Source: Patescibacteria group bacterium (lineage in GTDB: Bacteria; Patescibacteriota; Patescibacteriia; SG8-24; DYFX01). From it: a stretch of 64,000 bases of DNA. Shown here in pieces: positions 7,832 through 26,672 of the stretch. The notes beneath the pieces are model-generated. The model saw only the letters and a program-made list of their open reading frames with translations. It was not told the origin of the DNA and made no database searches. Every line of letters starts with the position of its first letter. Within the stretch, counting starts at the first letter, position 1. The position numbers and the translations under genes were made by a program. The stretch is from the NCBI GenBank assembly GCA_038062835.1, contig JBBTWH010000005.1, forward strand, positions 20,699 through 84,698. Direction: 5' to 3'.

Positions 7832-9145
7832 ATGCTGGACATCAATCTCATCCGGGAGCATCCCGAGCTCGTGAAGAAAGGCGCGGCCGCCAAGCGGTCC
7901 GACGTCGATATCGACAAGCTCCTGTACGCCGACGAACAGCGCCGCAAGCTCATCGGACAGATCCAGGAATTCCGCGCCGCGCAGAACGTGGCCGGGGAGC
8001 GCATCGCCAAGGAGGCGGACAAGGACGCCAAGACGAAAGCCGTCGAGGAGATGCGCGAGCTGAAGGAGAAGATGAAGACGCTCGAGGCCGAGCTGGCGGA
8101 GGCGGAAACGACCCTCCACGCGCTCTTGTCGCTCCTCCCGAACATGCCGTCGGACGACACGCCGGTCGGTCCGGACGAATCCGGCAACGTCGTCATCCGC
8201 ACGGTGGGGGAGCCGACGAAATTCGATTTCAAACCCAAGGACCACGTCGAGCTCGGCGAGGCGCTCGGCCTCATCGACAACGAGACGGGCTCCGAAGTCG
8301 CCGGCGCGCGTTTCACCTACATCAAGGGCGACCTGGCGCTCCTGCAGAACGCCCTGCACCAACTGGCGCTTTCGATCCTCACGGACGAGGCTTCGCTTTC
8401 GGCCGTCATCAAGGAAGCCGGCCTGGACGTGCCGGCCACGCCGTTCGTGCCGGTCATCCCGCCGCTGATGATCAAGCCGGAAGTCTTCCAGCGCATGGCG
8501 CGCCTCGAACCGCGCGAGGAGCGCTATCACATCCCGTCCGATGACCTCTTCCTGATCGGCAGCGCGGAACACACGCTCGGTCCCATCCACATGGACGAGA
8601 CCTTCGCCGAGAAAGATCTGCCGCGCCGCTACGTCGCCTACACGCCCGCCTTCCGCCGCGAGGCCGGTTCCTACGGCAAGGACACGAAGGGTATCCTGCG
8701 TCTTCACCAGTTCGACAAGATCGAGATGGAATCGTTCTCGCTGCCGGAACAGTCTCGCGCCGAGCAGGATCTCTTCGTCGCCATCCAGGAACACATCCTC
8801 AAGATCCTCGGCGTGCCGTATCAGGCCGTGCAGGTCTGCACCGGCGACATGGGCGGACCGGATTCCCGCCAGATCGACCTCGAATCGTGGATGCCAGGCC
8901 AGGACAAATACCGCGAGACGCACACCGCTGACCTGATGACCGACTACCAGGCGCGCAGGCTGAACACGCGCGTCCGCCGCGACGGAGGCGAGATGCAGTT
9001 CGTGCATATGAACGACGCCACCTGCATCGCCATGGGCCGCCTGCTCATCGCCATCATGGAGAACTTCCAGGAAGCCGACGGCACCATCCGCATCCCGAAG
9101 GTCCTCCAGACCTGGATGGGAGGGAGGACGCATATCGGAAAGTGA
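7832..9145 (+). CDS. serS: Seryl-tRNA synthetase
   Basis: N-terminal coiled-coil arm plus class II catalytic core. 437 aa. Confidence 0.95.
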   Translation: MLDINLIREHPELVKKGAAAKRSDVDIDKLLYADEQRRKLIGQIQEFRAAQNVAGERIAKEADKDAKTKAVEEMRELKEKMKTLEAELAEAETTLHALLSLLPNMPSDDTPVGPDESGNVVIRTVGEPTKFDFKPKDHVELGEALGLIDNETGSEVAGARFTYIKGDLALLQNALHQLALSILTDEASLSAVIKEAGLDVPATPFVPVIPPLMIKPEVFQRMARLEPREERYHIPSDDLFLIGSAEHTLGPIHMDETFAEKDLPRRYVAYTPAFRREAGSYGKDTKGILRLHQFDKIEMESFSLPEQSRAEQDLFVAIQEHILKILGVPYQAVQVCTGDMGGPDSRQIDLESWMPGQDKYRETHTADLMTDYQARRLNTRVRRDGGEMQFVHMNDATCIAMGRLLIAIMENFQEADGTIRIPKVLQTWMGGRTHIGK

Positions 9146-9152
9146 AGAGGGG

Positions 9153-9240
9153 CGGCAGCCAGGCCCCCGTTCGCTGGCGCCGGGAAAGAGGTACGTCACT
9201 GTTTTGAACGGACGCTGCGCTCACGGGGGCCTGGCTGCCG
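9153..9240 (+). repeat. Structured intergenic hairpin element, family A copy 1 (candidate cis-regulatory RNA or sRNA)
   Basis: 17-bp perfect inverted repeat cggcagccaggcccccg / cgggggcctggctgccg flanks a 54-nt core TTCGCTGGCGCCGGGA...GAACGGACGCTGCGC. The same core occurs again at 28314-28400 with different flanks. It ends about 16 nt before the alr start. Confidence 0.5.
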
Positions 9241-9256
9241 AAAAAGGGGAGAACGG

Positions 9257-10417
9257 ATGGAAGGTGTATACTGGGAGCGTATGCCTAAAAATGGTCCCAA
9301 AACTTGGGTCGAGGTTTCGCGTTCGGCGCTTATCGCGAACGCCAAGGCGTTCAAGCGCCGCGTGAAGCCGGGCGTGGCCGTGATGGCCGTCGTGAAATCG
9401 AACGCCTATGGCCACGGCCTCGTCGAGGTCGCCAAGACCGTCCAGCCGCATCTGGACTGGTTCGGCGTCGATAACGTCGATGAAGGGTTAGTACTCAAGA
9501 AGGCCGGCATCAAGAAACCGATCCTCATCCTGGGCTTCACGCCCTCGTGGCGCATGAAGGACGCCGTCCGCGCGGGGCTCCGCATGGTCGTTTCGACCGT
9601 CGAGCAGGTGAAGGCCGCGCGTGCCGCCGCCAAAGGCAAGAAGGCGTATCTCCATGTGAAAGTCGAGACGGGCACCACGCGCCAAGGCACAGGCCTCCGC
9701 GAGCTTCCGGCCGTCGCCCAGGCCATCCGCGTCTCCAAACAGCTCGTATTCGAAGGGCTCTCGACGCACTACGCCAACATCGAGGACGCGACGGAACATT
9801 CGTATGCCGCCGGCCAGCTCGAGGCCTATCAGAACGCGCTCGACATCCTTGACGCGCACGGCATCATGCCGCCCGTGAAGCACACCGCCTGCACGGCGGC
9901 CGCGATGATGTATCCCGACACGCATTTCGACATGGTCCGCGTCGGCATCGGCCTCTACGGCATCTGGCCCTCGCTCGAGACCCGCGTCGAGACGGAAGCC
10001 AAAGGCATCGAGTTCGATCTCAAGCCCGCGCTGGCGTGGAAGACGCTCGTCGCGCAGGTGAAGGACGTGAAACGCGGCACGCCCATCAGCTACGGACTCA
10101 CGGAAAATATGCCGCGCGACGGCAAGATCGCGGTGATCGGTCTTGGCTACTGGGACGGCTTCGACCGCGGACTCTCGTCCGTCGGCGAGGTCTTGGTGCG
10201 CGGCCGCAAGGCGAAAGTCATGGGCCGCGTCTGCATGAACATGTGCATGATCGACGTCAGCGACATCCCTGGCGTGAAGGCCGAGGACGAAGTCATCCTG
10301 ATCGGTGCAAGCGGCAAGCTATCCGTCAGCGCCGACGACATGGCCAAGAAGCTCGGGACCATCGCGTACGAGGTCGTGACGCGCATCAATCCGCTCGCGC
10401 CGCGGGAACTCGTATGA
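9257..10417 (+). CDS. alr: Alanine racemase (PLP-dependent)
   Basis: AVVKSNAYGHG PLP-lysine motif. 386 aa. Upstream of ddl. Confidence 0.9.
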   Translation: MEGVYWERMPKNGPKTWVEVSRSALIANAKAFKRRVKPGVAVMAVVKSNAYGHGLVEVAKTVQPHLDWFGVDNVDEGLVLKKAGIKKPILILGFTPSWRMKDAVRAGLRMVVSTVEQVKAARAAAKGKKAYLHVKVETGTTRQGTGLRELPAVAQAIRVSKQLVFEGLSTHYANIEDATEHSYAAGQLEAYQNALDILDAHGIMPPVKHTACTAAAMMYPDTHFDMVRVGIGLYGIWPSLETRVETEAKGIEFDLKPALAWKTLVAQVKDVKRGTPISYGLTENMPRDGKIAVIGLGYWDGFDRGLSSVGEVLVRGRKAKVMGRVCMNMCMIDVSDIPGVKAEDEVILIGASGKLSVSADDMAKKLGTIAYEVVTRINPLAPRELV

Positions 10418-12360: not shown

Positions 12361-12368
12361 CCGCCCAA

Positions 12369-12484
12369 GGCCCAGGTCCGCCATGACGAAGCGAGGACTG
12401 TCTGAGGCAGGCGAGCGCGTAATGATGCGCGAGCCGGTGCCGTAGGCAGCCGAGTTCCGCAGCGAGGAATGGCGGGCCTGGGCC
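12369..12484 (+). repeat. Intergenic repeat element, family B copy 1
   Basis: Core CGAGGACTGTCTGAGGCAGGCGAGCGCG..TGATGCGCGAGCCGGT...AGCCGAGTTCCGCAGCGAGG is shared with 17229-17359. It is flanked by a copy-specific inverted repeat ggcccaggtccgccat / atggcgggcctgggcc. Confidence 0.5.
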
Positions 12485-17228: not shown

Positions 17229-17359
17229 AAATAGGTCCGAGGATTTCGCGAAACGAGGACTATCTGAGGCAGGCGAGCGCGCGCTGATGCGCGAGCCGGT
17301 TCCCCGGCGAAGGCCGGGGAAGCCGAGTTCCGCAGTGAGCGAAAGACTCGGACCTATTT
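17229..17359 (+). repeat. Intergenic repeat element, family B copy 2 (between tagA and gltX)
   Basis: Same conserved core as 12369-12484. It has an extra internal hairpin ccccggcgaaggccgggg and its own 13-bp flanking inverted repeat aaataggtccgag / ctcggacctattt. Confidence 0.5.
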
Positions 17360-23623: not shown

Positions 23624-24400
23624 TTACGGTCGAGTGGATTCTCCTAATAGTGGGAAGGCGTAGCGCGCATCTTTTTCAGTGGCGGCTGAAATTCCCACGG
23701 GCGGCCTTGCGAACGAGCCCGCAAATTTTGCGATAGAGACACGGCCAAGGAAGACGGCGACGATGTTCACGCAGGTCAGAAGGTTATTACGCCTCCCCGT
23801 ATCCGTTTTTACGTTGTAACCGAGCGTGTGGTATTTCACGTCTTCATTCCAAGCCAAGGCATCAAGATAGTGCAAGAAGGCTTCTAGGGGCATCCCGTAG
23901 GCGCTGGGGACTGTCTTTGAAATTTCATCGACGACTTCCTGCGGCGGTTCATACCTCCAAATTCCACTCGCGACTTCCTTGTGGTCGAGTACATAGGCGG
24001 ATCTGAACAGCAGACTACCGAGCAACTCCAAAGTCATTTCATCCTCTCTTCCGATTTTCTGAAGCTCTTCGAACACGTCGCGGAACGATGCGGGCGTTCC
24101 CACAATGGCCCCCTTTTGCTCAAGACAAGGGAGCATGTCGTTGGGGTTATTCCCGATGTGCCCATCCTTATACTTGCATCTGTCGTAATCTGGCGCAGCC
24201 TCCTTGCCGGGTTTTCCAAGCAAAATCCTATTATCACCTTTGGTCCAAACGGGTTGATAGGACTTTGCTTCTTGTGATGTGCCTGTCGGCCAAGAAATCG
24301 CCTCTTCAACCATGGCCAAGCGGACGAGCCCGCTGCGCTTCTTATCAATCTTGCCGGTTTCCAACAGTTGAGCAAGCCTATTTTCGCGTGCATCAGTCAT
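23624..24400 (-). CDS. Hypothetical protein on low-GC island, divergent from the DNA methyltransferase (candidate restriction endonuclease or other partner)
   Basis: The tracked ORF runs to 24655, but its first roughly 85 codons are antisense to the MTase start and promoter. Likely start is MTDARENRL... near 24400. About 52% GC versus about 65% in flanks. No recognisable family. Possible D..(18 residues)..DHK PD-(D/E)xK-like spacing. Confidence 0.45.
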   Translation of the reverse strand: MTDARENRLAQLLETGKIDKKRSGLVRLAMVEEAISWPTGTSQEAKSYQPVWTKGDNRILLGKPGKEAAPDYDRCKYKDGHIGNNPNDMLPCLEQKGAIVGTPASFRDVFEELQKIGREDEMTLELLGSLLFRSAYVLDHKEVASGIWRYEPPQEVVDEISKTVPSAYGMPLEAFLHYLDALAWNEDVKYHTLGYNVKTDTGRRNNLLTCVNIVAVFLGRVSIAKFAGSFARPPVGISAATEKDARYAFPLLGESTRP

Positions 24401-24517
24401 GTTTGTATGGTAACTTGATCTTCCTGTCCGTGTGGGATATATTATCAACAGGCCCGTTTTGACACGTTCGCCTGCAGTCATACTACCATTCTCACACCAT
24501 TGCAATATCAACTCTAT

Positions 24518-26260
24518 ATGGCAAAGCAATTGAGGGCAATCGACTTCTTCTGCGGTGCGGGCGGTTGGTCCGAAGGGCTCAGGCAACAGGGAATCAAGGT
24601 CGTGATGGGCATCGACAACTGGCGCCCGGCCGTCGAGACCCACAACATCAACCACGGCCTCAACGACGTCGTCGGTGACGTCTTGTCGTTGGAGGGCGAT
24701 GTCGATGCGACTATCGAGAAGCTTCCTGATACCGAAATTATCGTCGGCAGCCCGCCGTGCATCTCTTTCTCGATGTCGAACAAAGCAGGTAAAGCTGACA
24801 AGTCACTCGGTATCCGCCTAATCGAGGCCTACTTGCGCTTCGTCGCCGTGAAGAAGCACAAGAAACGTTCCATTCTGCAAGCTTGGTACATGGAGAATGT
24901 CCCGAACTCCAGGAATTTCGTGCAGAAGACGTACACGTTTGCTGATTTGAATCTTTCAGCTTGGGCCAAGAAGAACGGCAAGAATCCGAAGGCTGTCGCA
25001 CTGAACGTCCAGGACAACGGCGGGATTCTCTGCGCGGCGGACTATGGATCACCCCAGAGTCGTGAACGTTTCGTTTGTGGCGAAATGACAAAGCGCAACG
25101 GTTCCGTAAAGGTCGGTGAATTCTTGGCTCCGAAAGTGACCAACGCGAACAGCCGCGTAACGTTGGAGGACATCAAGGGAAAGATGCCGAAGCCGACGGA
25201 GAAGCCTGGGAACAAGGCTTGGGCAGATCCGAACTACCCGAATTTGAAATTGAAGGTCCAAGACATCACGGATCATTTCTACGACCCCGGTGTCTACCGT
25301 TCCGAATGGGAAAGCGCGAAAGCCGCCAAGGTGAATCACCCGTTCATGGGCAGAATGTCCTTCCCAGAGGACCGGAAGCGGCCGAGTCGGACGATTATGG
25401 CAACAAGGTCTGGAAGCACGCGCGAGGCCATCATCTACCCTTCCGAATGGGGTCATGTCGGCGACGGTCAGTATCGCCTCCCCACGATTCGTGAGGCGGC
25501 TTCCCTGATGGGTTTCCCTATCACCTACCAGTTCACGGGTGGTGAAGGATCTAAATGGCGGCAAATCGGCAATGCCGTCTGCCCGCACATGAGCGCCGCT
25601 ATCGGCGCGGCTCTCCGAAAGGCATTCGGCATGCGGCCGATTCCGGTCGCAAAAATCATGTTTGACGCCAAGCACGTGAAGGATGAGCGTATCCTGAATC
25701 TCAATACTTTTGCGCCGCGTTCCTACGACAAGCCGCCTCTTAGAAAGGCTGGGGCGAAGTTCCGACGTCAGCCATTCAAGTCTGGCAACATGACCGTAGC
25801 CCTGATGAATTTCGATCCTAGGGTGAGCATCGGTGCGGCTGTAGCCTCAGATTGGCGCGCTGTCGTCTTCGTGGGTGCCGGGAAAGTGTATGATACGGTC
25901 GAGCTGGGCCTTGATGACCTCCGGGTGCTAGAAACGAGCCTGGCCTCCCGAAAAGAAGGTCGCACATTCATTGCCGAGTTTGAGAAGAAGTTCGATGGTA
26001 AAGTCGCTCCTACCGCCGAGCTCCAAACCATCTTCGAAACGAACCAGCCTGGCACGAAGGCGCTCGCGCCCTCCGAACTCGTTCAGGCGGTTGCAGATCT
26101 CGCTGAGAAGGTCGGTAGCGGTCCTGCTCCGGTCACCAATCCCATCATGACGAGGGTCCGGAAGGCAGAAGTGCCCCATCAGCAACTGCTTGCCATGTAC
26201 GCCCTTGCGCGCATCTCAGCAGAAATCAAGCGCGCCGCGGCCGTTCCGGAGCCGGCTTGA
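24518..26260 (+). CDS. DNA (cytosine-5)-methyltransferase with about 200-aa C-terminal extension
   Basis: Motif I FFCGAGGWSEG, motif IV GSPPCISFS (PC catalytic Cys), motif VI ENVPN, motif X QIGNAV. Residues about 380-586 extend beyond the catalytic domain with no recognisable motif. Confidence 0.9.
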   Translation: MAKQLRAIDFFCGAGGWSEGLRQQGIKVVMGIDNWRPAVETHNINHGLNDVVGDVLSLEGDVDATIEKLPDTEIIVGSPPCISFSMSNKAGKADKSLGIRLIEAYLRFVAVKKHKKRSILQAWYMENVPNSRNFVQKTYTFADLNLSAWAKKNGKNPKAVALNVQDNGGILCAADYGSPQSRERFVCGEMTKRNGSVKVGEFLAPKVTNANSRVTLEDIKGKMPKPTEKPGNKAWADPNYPNLKLKVQDITDHFYDPGVYRSEWESAKAAKVNHPFMGRMSFPEDRKRPSRTIMATRSGSTREAIIYPSEWGHVGDGQYRLPTIREAASLMGFPITYQFTGGEGSKWRQIGNAVCPHMSAAIGAALRKAFGMRPIPVAKIMFDAKHVKDERILNLNTFAPRSYDKPPLRKAGAKFRRQPFKSGNMTVALMNFDPRVSIGAAVASDWRAVVFVGAGKVYDTVELGLDDLRVLETSLASRKEGRTFIAEFEKKFDGKVAPTAELQTIFETNQPGTKALAPSELVQAVADLAEKVGSGPAPVTNPIMTRVRKAEVPHQQLLAMYALARISAEIKRAAAVPEPA

Positions 26261-26672
26261 TTCCAGAAAGTGTCAGGAAGTTGAATATCTTGCCGGTCAC
26301 CTTTAGGCGATCGGTTTTGATTTCATGTTCCCAAACGCGTATATATTTCCAACCGAGCCTCCGCAGCTTCGCAAAATTACGACGGTCCCGGCGTCGGTTT
26401 CTCTCGATCTTATCTCGCCAGAACTTCTGACGAAGCTTGTGCCTCCAGGCCGGGTAGCGATACCCGTGCCAGAAATCGCCGTCTACGAAAATCGCGAGCT
26501 TTCGGCTCGGAATGGCGAGGTCGGGTGAGCCAGGCGCTTTCTTGTAGTGTTTCTGAAAGTGCACCTTACGCCTCCGCAACTCACGAAAAACAAATATCTC
26601 AAGGCTCGTGTTCTTACCGCGCACCCGCGACATGATGCGGCTACGGATTTCTTTGGAGAACTTGTCGGGCAT
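26226..26672 (-). CDS. vsr: Very-short-patch repair endonuclease (Vsr)
   Basis: FVDGDFWHG signature, basic about 148-aa protein. Convergent with the MTase and overlaps its end by 35 nt. Confidence 0.9.
   Translation of the reverse strand: MPDKFSKEIRSRIMSRVRGKNTSLEIFVFRELRRRKVHFQKHYKKAPGSPDLAIPSRKLAIFVDGDFWHGYRYPAWRHKLRQKFWRDKIERNRRRDRRNFAKLRRLGWKYIRVWEHEIKTDRLKVTGKIFNFLTLSGIKPAPERPRRA

Follow-up and report, generated by a model that had tools for sequence, protein, structure and literature searches.

Two hairpins of about 88 nt, alike at the core and different in the arms, stand upstream of two unrelated genes in the 64-kb stretch of Patescibacteria DNA analyzed here (the window), and they raise the question of whether such an element is a leader RNA of the gene that follows it, a free-standing small RNA, or a repeat that has spread through the genome. 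Copy 1 (9153–9240) lies between the serS stop codon (9145) and the promoter and start of alr, and copy 2 (28314–28400) lies between a TATAAT hexamer (28407–28402) and the pirin Shine-Dalgarno sequence. An earlier note on this DNA read copy 1 on the + strand and copy 2 on the − strand; we call this the reading strand and its complement (− for copy 1, + for copy 2) the putative folding strand. In copy 1, the copy-specific 5′ arm (9153–9172) pairs with the 3′ arm (9221–9240), and the arms enclose the invariant core block GCTGGCGCCGGGA (9173–9185; CCCGGCGCCAGC on the folding strand; identical in 25 of 25 aligned copies of the family), an apical loop (9186–9205) of 18–20 nt that is purine-rich on the + strand and differs among copies, and the invariant core block GAACGGACGCTGCGC (9206–9220). 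In copy 2, read on the − strand, the arm GGGGCCGGGCGCGTCCGTTCGC (28379–28400) is followed by GCTGGCGCCGGGA (28368–28380), GAACGGACGCTGCGC (28334–28348), and the second arm (28314–28335); the inner GCGTCCGTTC of the first arm is complementary also to the core block GAACGGACGC. Exactly two matches in the 64 kb were found both for the 16-mer TTCGCTGGCGCCGGGA, at 9170–9185 (+) and 28368–28383 (−), and for the 15-mer GAACGGACGCTGCGC, at 9206–9220 (+) and 28334–28348 (−), and all remaining matches to either in the window needed two to three mismatches, which is the chance level. The arms form perfect inverted repeats of 18 bp in copy 1 (9153–9170 with 9223–9240) and 22 bp in copy 2 (28314–28335 with 28379–28400), the two best inverted repeats in the 64 kb. 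The predicted RNA folding energies were −63.5 and −68.8 kcal/mol for copies 1 and 2, with z-scores of −6.7 and −8.2 against shuffled sequences, and a covariance model of the family scored copy 1 at 90.7 bits on the − strand and copy 2 at 96.8 bits on the + strand. The sequence matches and inverted repeats thus bear out the earlier note's description of two ∼88-nt hairpins with identical core blocks and differing, perfectly paired arms. Its statement that the arms are completely different holds between the window copies outside a common inner CCGTTCGC, but not for the family as a whole, in which the arms of 25 copies are distantly homologous and fall into subfamilies.

The genes and signals around the two copies differ in how closely the hairpin is tied to them. 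The seryl-tRNA synthetase gene serS (7832–9145, + strand; Pfam Seryl_tRNA_N and tRNA-synt_2b on the identical gene in loci L042–L045) stops 7 nt before copy 1. The alanine racemase ORF, alr (9257–10417, + strand), opens at 9257, but its most likely start, by homology, is the ATG at 9281, positioned 8 nt past a −10-like TATACT (9267–9272) as in relatives. With alr starting at this ATG behind its own TATACT, the Shine-Dalgarno sequence that had been noted at 9246–9251 is probably not a real one. Hairpins of this family can mislead start-codon and Shine-Dalgarno calls, as at alr, and they also disturb assemblies (L042 being a case). The pirin gene (27589–28311, − strand) has a probable ATG start at 28296 and GGAGGAGGG at 28306–28298, and copy 2 is placed 1 nt past the TATAAT read at 28402–28407 (− strand) and 7 nt ahead of GGAGGAGGG. 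If this hexamer is the pirin −10 element, the hairpin would form the 5′ end of the pirin mRNA; a consensus promoter scan did not call a full promoter at 28402–28407. A terminator-like hairpin with a T-run (28481–28506, − strand), ∼80 nt upstream of copy 2, is read as the terminator of the preceding − strand gene. Both window copies point toward the downstream gene, the reading strand being the sense strand. The reported placement directly upstream of a Shine-Dalgarno sequence thus stands for pirin, where the hairpin ends at 28314, and is doubtful for alr.

We sought further copies of the element, called Family A here, beyond the window. A scan of one genome per species with the core pattern returned 41 loci, mostly chance matches in GC-rich genomes, together with 10 true copies in three MAGs, in which a long inverted repeat of its own encloses each core. 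Metagenome contigs from groundwater and soil, scanned more strictly, yielded 13 further loci. After deduplication, the total was 25 distinct core-pattern copies (the window's 2 plus 23), to which are added two copies reached through DnaJ protein homology (L068 and L070) and one interrupted copy (L012); the census is biased in that the exact core pattern retrieved most copies. At least six copies are present on one 259-kb contig and two in the 64-kb window, and from the 259-kb contig we estimate a density of roughly one copy per 30–40 kb, or ∼25–30 per Mb. Genes identical to alr were found on groundwater contigs from Hainich well H41 in both the 0.1 and 0.2 μm filter fractions, and the alr and DnaJ homologues, where a source is named, are mostly labeled Patescibacteria, Uhrbacteria, or Parcubacteria. 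Family A is a non-coding element of ∼88–100 nt that is confined to a narrow clade of high-GC Patescibacteria, bacteria of ultra-small size that live in groundwater. The covariance model, built on the 25 copies, detected no extra or degenerate copy in 217 kb of related loci, 54 kb of relatives, or the window searched with all filters off, and viral contigs, plasmids, and phages gave no Family A match. The complete genome CP129476, of the same clade, lacked an exact core match, and the 21 kb of it that were examined contained no Family A copy. A scan of the 64 kb against Rfam 15 at gathering thresholds returned no matches, and permissive scans returned only generic long-hairpin noise (e.g., miRNA precursors) at no more than 25 bits against thresholds of 50–150. 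The Rfam check for a known terminator or REP class therefore assigned no family, in agreement with the earlier failure to match the element to any known RNA, and neither Rfam nor full-text literature on Patescibacteria repeats and structured RNAs yielded a previous description of Family A. No tRNA or tmRNA was found in the window or 19 loci, and a tRNA-like reading of the flank was dropped. A peptide encoded from the loop ATG (MSLLERTLR...) was also rejected; other copies have ACG, TTG, or ATT in place of this ATG, which is thus not conserved, and the frame extends into the variable arm.

The alignment of copies showed an outer stem of 19–28 bp that is GC-rich and arbitrary in sequence yet paired. 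With the arms kept in register, 23 outer and 6 inner pairs describe all copies; 93% of the stem cells were paired compared to 70% with shuffled partners (none of 500 shuffles reached the observed value), and pairing fell to 31–39% when the partner columns were slid by one to three columns. Both sides change in 22 of the 23 outer pairs, and RNAalifold predicted the same fold. The covariation statistics that had been proposed as a check therefore show a strongly covarying stem. The inner six pairs and the adjoining nucleotides, by comparison, are invariant in all copies, giving a fixed core of ∼26 nt. On the folding strand, the apex reads GCGCAGCGUCCGUUC, a loop of ∼20 nt, and CCCGGCGCCAGYG, and it folds into two 3-bp helices with a bulged U/T between them and a small asymmetric internal loop beneath; the 5′ half of the apical loop varies, and its 3′ half is C/U-rich (purine-rich on the reading strand). 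As a control for ascertainment, L068 and L070, from two further species, were retrieved only via DnaJ homologues (89% and 85% identity), with no use of the core sequence. Across the four orthologous copies downstream of dnaJ (L053, L032, L068, and L070), both core blocks were 100% identical, the loop 50%, the arms 75% and 68%, and the flanks 82–83%, and the arm differences were matched by the partner arm. The dnaJ-downstream copy has thus been inherited vertically, with its core under purifying selection and its stem evolving by compensated changes. Given the strong covariation of the stem and the invariance of the core, both are under selection. The covariation, the core that is invariant even in L068 and L070, and the lack of an Rfam match uphold the earlier claim of a selected single-strand structure as opposed to the relic of a decaying mobile element.

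Mismatches in the stems distinguish the two strands. On the reading strand they comprise 22 A·C versus 5 G·U, so that on the complementary strand most become G·U (or G·T) wobbles, and L068 and L070 supply two further wobbles of the same kind. Comparison of outer-stem stability favored the complementary strand in 16 copies and the reading strand in 6, and by our own tally the mismatch bias is seen in copies of either gene-relative orientation. For the core and loop of perfect-stem copies, it is the reading strand that is better, by ∼7.5 kcal/mol, owing to a G·U pair and pairs within the loop. The A·C excess on the reading strand points to its complement as the strand that must pair, a conclusion drawn from comparison of the outer variable stem only. 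Mutational skew as the source of the A·C excess was considered and rejected, since the flanks are skewed oppositely; the asymmetry is contrary in direction to the local GC skew, and the polarity therefore belongs to the element itself.

No copy was seen inside a gene, and all copies examined are intergenic. Their orientation relative to the flanking genes, judged by codon-position GC and readable ORFs, divides about half and half. The reading strand is sense for both window copies, L012, L029, L040b, and L040c; the complementary strand is sense at the dnaJ locus and in L037, L049, and L033, downstream of a 213-aa ORF; L054 and L055 lie between divergent genes. The neighbors (alr, pirin, dnaJ, dnaE, and the 213-aa ORF, which is Wzz-like by eye only) are functionally unrelated. 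At three loci (L037, L049, and L050), a canonical terminator, made up of a hairpin and a T-run, comes before the element, and a promoter-like sequence of the form TTGACA/TTGCCA, 17 nt, and a −10-like hexamer (e.g., TTGACA-17-TTTACT) comes after it; this interval between terminator and promoter is the least likely to be transcribed. Relative to promoters, the position of the element ranges from +1 to about −100. Both flanks are rich in G and poor in C on the reading strand, with C at −1 and with T at +1 in 16 of 25 copies. An upstream TGTCAA recurs on the reading strand and at some loci is the reverse complement of the TTGACA −35 element of the neighboring promoter; in L055 it overlaps part of a small terminator stem. 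A promoter belonging to the element was rejected, as no consistent −10/−35 was seen on either strand. Orientation set by replication was likewise rejected, because copies in both orientations lie less than 8 kb apart in L040 and because copies 1 and 2 face opposite ways although they share one side of the skew switch.

Several observations speak to how the element came to occupy these spacers. In L012, an entire copy, arms included, is inserted in the apical loop of a second one, and GGGAAGAGG flanks the insert at either end. L057 and L059b have the same S1 arm, GGCGGCGGGCAGGCGTCCGCTCGC; the arm of L051a departs from it at one position, and those of L056 and L055 are near relatives of it. The serS-alr spacer measures 3 nt in CP129476 (77% alr identity), contains a terminator and TATAAT in a relative with 88% alr identity, carries other small hairpins in relatives with 89–90% identity, and holds a different long hairpin in one with 82% identity. 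Because the spacer differs among relatives, copy 1 is best explained as a lineage-specific insertion into a hypervariable spacer; a clean empty site for copy 1 at nucleotide resolution was not found, the serS-alr spacer being different in every relative. The region of copy 2 shares two short motifs with L059, but the MAFFT alignment was unconvincing and synteny was not accepted. Judging by their flawless stems, as expected of recent insertions, both window copies are probably young. The flanks of the same copy are slightly more similar to each other than flanks of different copies (11.8 versus 10.7; permutation p = 0.013, a weak sign of target-site duplication), the clearest repeat being the GGGAAGAGG at the nested copy. 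Insertion of the core into pre-existing hairpins was rejected on the grounds that near-identical arms occur at different loci and that the nested copy brought its own arms. Nested insertion, the absence of copy 1 from close relatives, and near-identical stems at separate loci are features of a spreading repeat, a possibility that the earlier note had set aside. No autonomous element with the same ends was seen in ∼350 kb of fetched loci.

The closest likeness is to the REP/REPIN-RAYT elements, which are also short intergenic hairpin repeats that occur in either orientation and persist at orthologous loci, whose hairpins are kept by matched arm changes, and whose active form is thought to be single-stranded. 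Family A is extragenic and multi-copy, occurs in both orientations, and shows matched changes in the same manner. The two are nonetheless mirror images, with conserved arms and a variable loop in REP/REPIN but an invariant apex and variable arms in Family A. REP/REPIN copies number tens to hundreds, and the REP unit is an imperfect palindrome of 20–40 nt whose arms form part of the conserved unit; the genome also carries a RAYT (Y1 transposase) gene, which REPs typically flank. The Family A hairpin, by contrast, is 88–100 nt long with arms that differ, and it is less numerous, at the ∼25–30 copies per Mb estimated above. According to PMC3733652, one end of the REP palindrome bears a conserved tetranucleotide, either GTAG or CGTC. 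In the 25 Family A copies, no fixed tetranucleotide was present among the bases at the foot of the stem or in the flanks, which showed only a composition bias (G-rich, C at −1, and T at +1). CGTC does occur inside the Family A core (AGCGTCCG), away from the foot. Other small palindromic repeats, namely ERIC, Correia/NEMIS, the mycobacterial TRIT motif, Rickettsia RPEs, and MITEs, share with Family A a small non-coding size, inverted ends, residence in promoter/terminator spacers, occasional nesting, and restriction to a lineage. These elements keep terminal repeats and a whole-element consensus and decay after insertion, whereas Family A fixes only the ∼26-nt core and yielded no decayed copies. 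Mitochondrial GC clusters and repetitive hairpin-forming elements such as the sponge RHEs (PMC2800124) resemble Family A as GC-rich mobile hairpins that invade spacers and loops by a mechanism that is not known, but their hosts are organellar, and they are not known to have an invariant apex with covarying stems. TIGR-Tas arrays, which are present in Patescibacteria, have their units lined up in tandem next to a tas gene, and each unit contains box C/D motifs and two hypervariable spacers of 8–12 nt. Like a Family A copy, such a unit combines short conserved motifs with a stem that varies in sequence but is always palindromic (PMC12045711). Family A occurs as dispersed single copies, however; K-turn and box C/D motifs are absent, UGAUGA/CUGA is found on neither core strand, and the loop is not spacer-like. 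An imperfect hairpin of highly variable sequence is also seen in integron attC sites, which are recognized as one folded DNA strand. The attC sites carry R″/L″...L′/R′ boxes (RYYYAAC / GTTRRRY) at the foot, have a variable center, and lie in cassette arrays next to intI; in Family A the foot is variable, the center conserved, and the copies dispersed, and the only attC-related Rfam match, to sRNA-Xcc1, reached 19 bits, well below its threshold of 53.

These findings bear directly on the alternatives. A cis-acting 5′-leader RNA on the reading strand, similar to a riboswitch or attenuator and controlling the downstream gene, is what the earlier note implied, and it draws some support from the two window copies, which both face the downstream gene and of which copy 2 lies between TATAAT and the pirin Shine-Dalgarno sequence, from the greater stability of the core and loop on the reading strand, and from ∼40% of copies in which the core-adjacent arm can pair with either of two GAACGGAC-like segments, a possible alternative structure. 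The constant 5′ UTR position, constant orientation, and related genes of riboswitches and other leaders were not found, however: about half of the copies are antisense to both neighbors or occupy the interval from a terminator to the promoter that follows it, the neighboring genes are unrelated, alr probably starts at 9281 with its own promoter downstream of the hairpin, one copy is nested within another, and the dominant mismatches on the reading strand are A·C, which disrupt RNA helices. We consequently give a leader role scarcely any credence. Only slightly more can be said for an ordinary MITE mobilized by a DDE transposase, or for a double-stranded site or cruciform recognized by a regulator or nucleoid protein. 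The small size, multiple copies, bounding inverted repeats, and intergenic location in every copy examined would all fit, as would the weak direct-repeat signal in the flanks and the GGCGCC and CCGG palindromes read in the core, but the position relative to promoters varies, and a cruciform or double-stranded site would leave the strand-asymmetric mismatch spectrum unexplained. The MITE signs that had been suggested for a wider census appeared in part, in that the copies are many, but the flanking arms covary, the terminal repeats are not conserved among copies, and no decayed copies were found in the 217 kb of loci or the window; this pair of readings is highly improbable.

Small structured RNAs made from the folding strand and excised from carrier transcripts (e.g., by RNase III), with the loop ACCUCUUCCC serving as an anti-Shine-Dalgarno seed or a protein-binding module, would accord with the tolerance of that strand for G·U wobbles, the strong covariation and the compensatory changes in vertically inherited copies, the retention of a C/U-rich 3′ half in a loop whose 5′ half varies, the sense orientation of the folding strand in the dnaJ-locus copies and in those that follow the Wzz-like ORF, and the coexistence of a second family of the same design. 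We consider this reading unlikely on balance, because the flanks that were read contain no consistent promoter upstream on the folding strand, about half of the copies would require antisense transcription, and some lie downstream of a strong terminator. A REP-like hairpin exapted from a repeat for a host function, such as a terminator, insulator, or mRNA-end protector, seems quite unlikely as the main explanation, although it is compatible as a secondary role. Copies are often located at the end of a transcription unit and never, among those examined, outside intergenic DNA; the stems are very stable, 16 of 25 copies have a T at +1 on the reading strand, the first 8 nt of which contain 3.0 T on average, and the dnaJ-downstream copy is kept across species. 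As to termination in particular, the hairpin followed by a U-tract that defines an intrinsic terminator is lacking in the window copies, which continue into AAAAAGGGG and CAATGTTGG with no T-run and were not called by a terminator scan; among the other copies, about half show four or more T within the first 8 nt of the reading strand. Furthermore, a terminator would not need an invariant ∼26-nt core, canonical terminators adjoin some copies, and the orientation relative to genes is mixed.

The explanation that we favor, with about even confidence, is that Family A is a lineage-specific, dispersed hairpin repeat of the REP/REPIN kind that folds as a single strand and whose apex is read by a putative protein. 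The element would have multiplied in its host genomes by inserting in either orientation into G-rich, promoter-proximal spacers, and its copies would then have persisted over long spans of time, during which the core stayed as it was and the stem changed by compensated substitutions. The retention of the hairpin by matched changes implies a single-stranded active form; the complement of the reading strand, as ssDNA or RNA, presumably folds, and the element would act, and probably spread, as that single strand. The stem may serve as a clamp presenting the invariant apex, including the bulged T/U, to a sequence-specific protein that mobilizes the element, uses it, or both, comparable to the Y1 (RAYT) transposases or REP-binding host factors of REP/REPIN. 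The single-stranded intermediate, the protein partner, and the host function are inferred. Because the core is intact in old copies, each copy is probably useful to the host or guarded by the partner protein, and the element may plausibly have a secondary role in protecting the ends of transcripts or insulating them. With copy 2 in place, the pirin mRNA would begin with a hairpin of about −69 kcal/mol that leaves the Shine-Dalgarno sequence uncovered, and copy 1 splits the serS-alr junction just upstream of the alr promoter; any effects on alr or pirin are presumably by-products rather than ligand-sensing regulation. Several points weigh against the favored explanation as stated. The architecture is reversed relative to REP/REPIN, with the apex conserved and the arms variable, and the foot of the hairpin has no GTAG/CGTC tag; the sign of target-site duplication is weak, and the core with its loop folds better on the reading strand; the census is biased toward exact core matches. 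Moreover, the constancy of the core in old copies passed on by vertical descent is easier to reconcile with a function for the host at each locus than with a purely selfish element.

The second family of the same design, with a long closing stem around a conserved core, occurs at 17236–17355 and 12362–12480. Together, the two families raise the tentative possibility, to which we give a minority share of our confidence, of a new type of element: a propagating structured ssDNA or RNA module with an invariant recognition apex on a variable clamp stem, under purifying selection at each locus. Such a module may be a hairpin-borne mobile RNA/ssDNA system with a dedicated enzyme, or it may be a group of small RNAs that RNase III releases and that have an anti-Shine-Dalgarno loop rich in C. 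Family A belongs to a known kind, the dispersed palindromic repeats, and with the second family there is a real chance that it may be something more distinctive. Patescibacteria have tiny, tightly packed genomes, and almost nothing is known of their regulation; in such genomes, 90-base non-coding repeats with an untouched core are unlikely to be junk. Family A offers an unusually clean case of selection on structure, and identification of the partner that reads its apex would reveal a new mobilization system or a new post-transcriptional layer in these bacteria.

A second repeat family was identified in the window, with copies at positions 17236-17355 and 12362-12480 and in three related loci (L048, 5580-5700; L012, 2248-2339; and L060, 50-131). 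The copies share a conserved core of ∼75 nt (GAGGACUNUCUGAGGCAGGCGAGCGCG...CGCGAGCCGG...GCCGAGUUCCGCAG) that is predicted to form several stems, and their long closing stems differ from copy to copy. This family has the same design as the Family A hairpin repeat, a conserved core with long copy-specific closing stems. The plus strand is the better-folding strand, and Rfam provided no match for this family. The copy near 17.2 kb occupies an intergenic spacer of ∼155 nt between genes for tRNA-synt_1c and Glyco_tran_WecG (names called in the colinear locus L061); the spacer matching this site is only ∼10 to 35 nt in L061, L063, and L064. The two families also occur together, with ∼45 nt separating a second-family copy from a Family A copy in L048. 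Two Family A copies are nested in L012 (337-523), where a complete inner copy splits the apical loop of the outer one.

Spacer hairpins of multiple types seem to be abundant across these genomes. A third long hairpin was observed at the serS-alr junction of the relative with 82% alr identity (L063, 1-95); its arms (ACCCCGGCGGAGGC / GCCTCCGCCGGGGT) enclose an unrelated interior of ∼50 nt. In L053 and L032, dnaJ is followed by small CCCCGG(N)CCGGGG hairpins. Two public assemblies of the serS-alr locus (L042, 2750-2850, and L043, 2295-2335) display N-runs, G/C homopolymers, and clusters of T-to-C or T-to-G differences around or inside the Family A hairpin; long GC-rich hairpins of this kind are probably a source of sequencing or assembly errors.

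The Family A copy upstream of the pirin gene (28314-28400) lies ∼1.6 kb from a stretch of low GC content (23624-26672; 0.54-0.57 versus ∼0.64 elsewhere). This stretch looks like a restriction-modification island: it encodes a C-5 cytosine DNA methyltransferase (24500-26260, plus strand), a fusion of a Vsr-type mismatch endonuclease with an REase_MTES_1575 domain (26226-26672, minus strand), and a 343-residue ORF without a Pfam hit (23624-24655, minus strand). Just 5' of the same hairpin is the 15-mer CGTAGGAGGGCGGTT (28411-28425, minus strand), which in the related locus L059 (3880-3894) forms the final codons of a 124-residue gene; a further Family A copy lies at a distance of 30 nt from this gene. 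Both regions additionally contain the motif GTGTCAA(N)CAAT(N)GCGGG. These shared sequences may mark a rearrangement breakpoint at the pirin-proximal copy, with the alignment of the two regions being unconvincing. At ∼30 to 32 kb the GC skew flips sign and its cumulative value is lowest; this switch (∼30000-32000) may correspond to a replication origin or terminus, or simply to a change in gene orientation.

A TATACT/TATAAT box seems to lie just 6 to 9 nt 5' of the ATG in many genes of this clade, including cases in the window (9257-9283, with the box at 9267-9272), L061 (9980-10003), L063 (95-112), L053 (11790-11815), and L054 (∼8395-8412). The window alr probably starts at 9281 rather than 9257, which would remove eight codons from the longest ORF. 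The short box-to-ATG distance suggests that the mRNAs of many genes in this clade are leaderless or near-leaderless.
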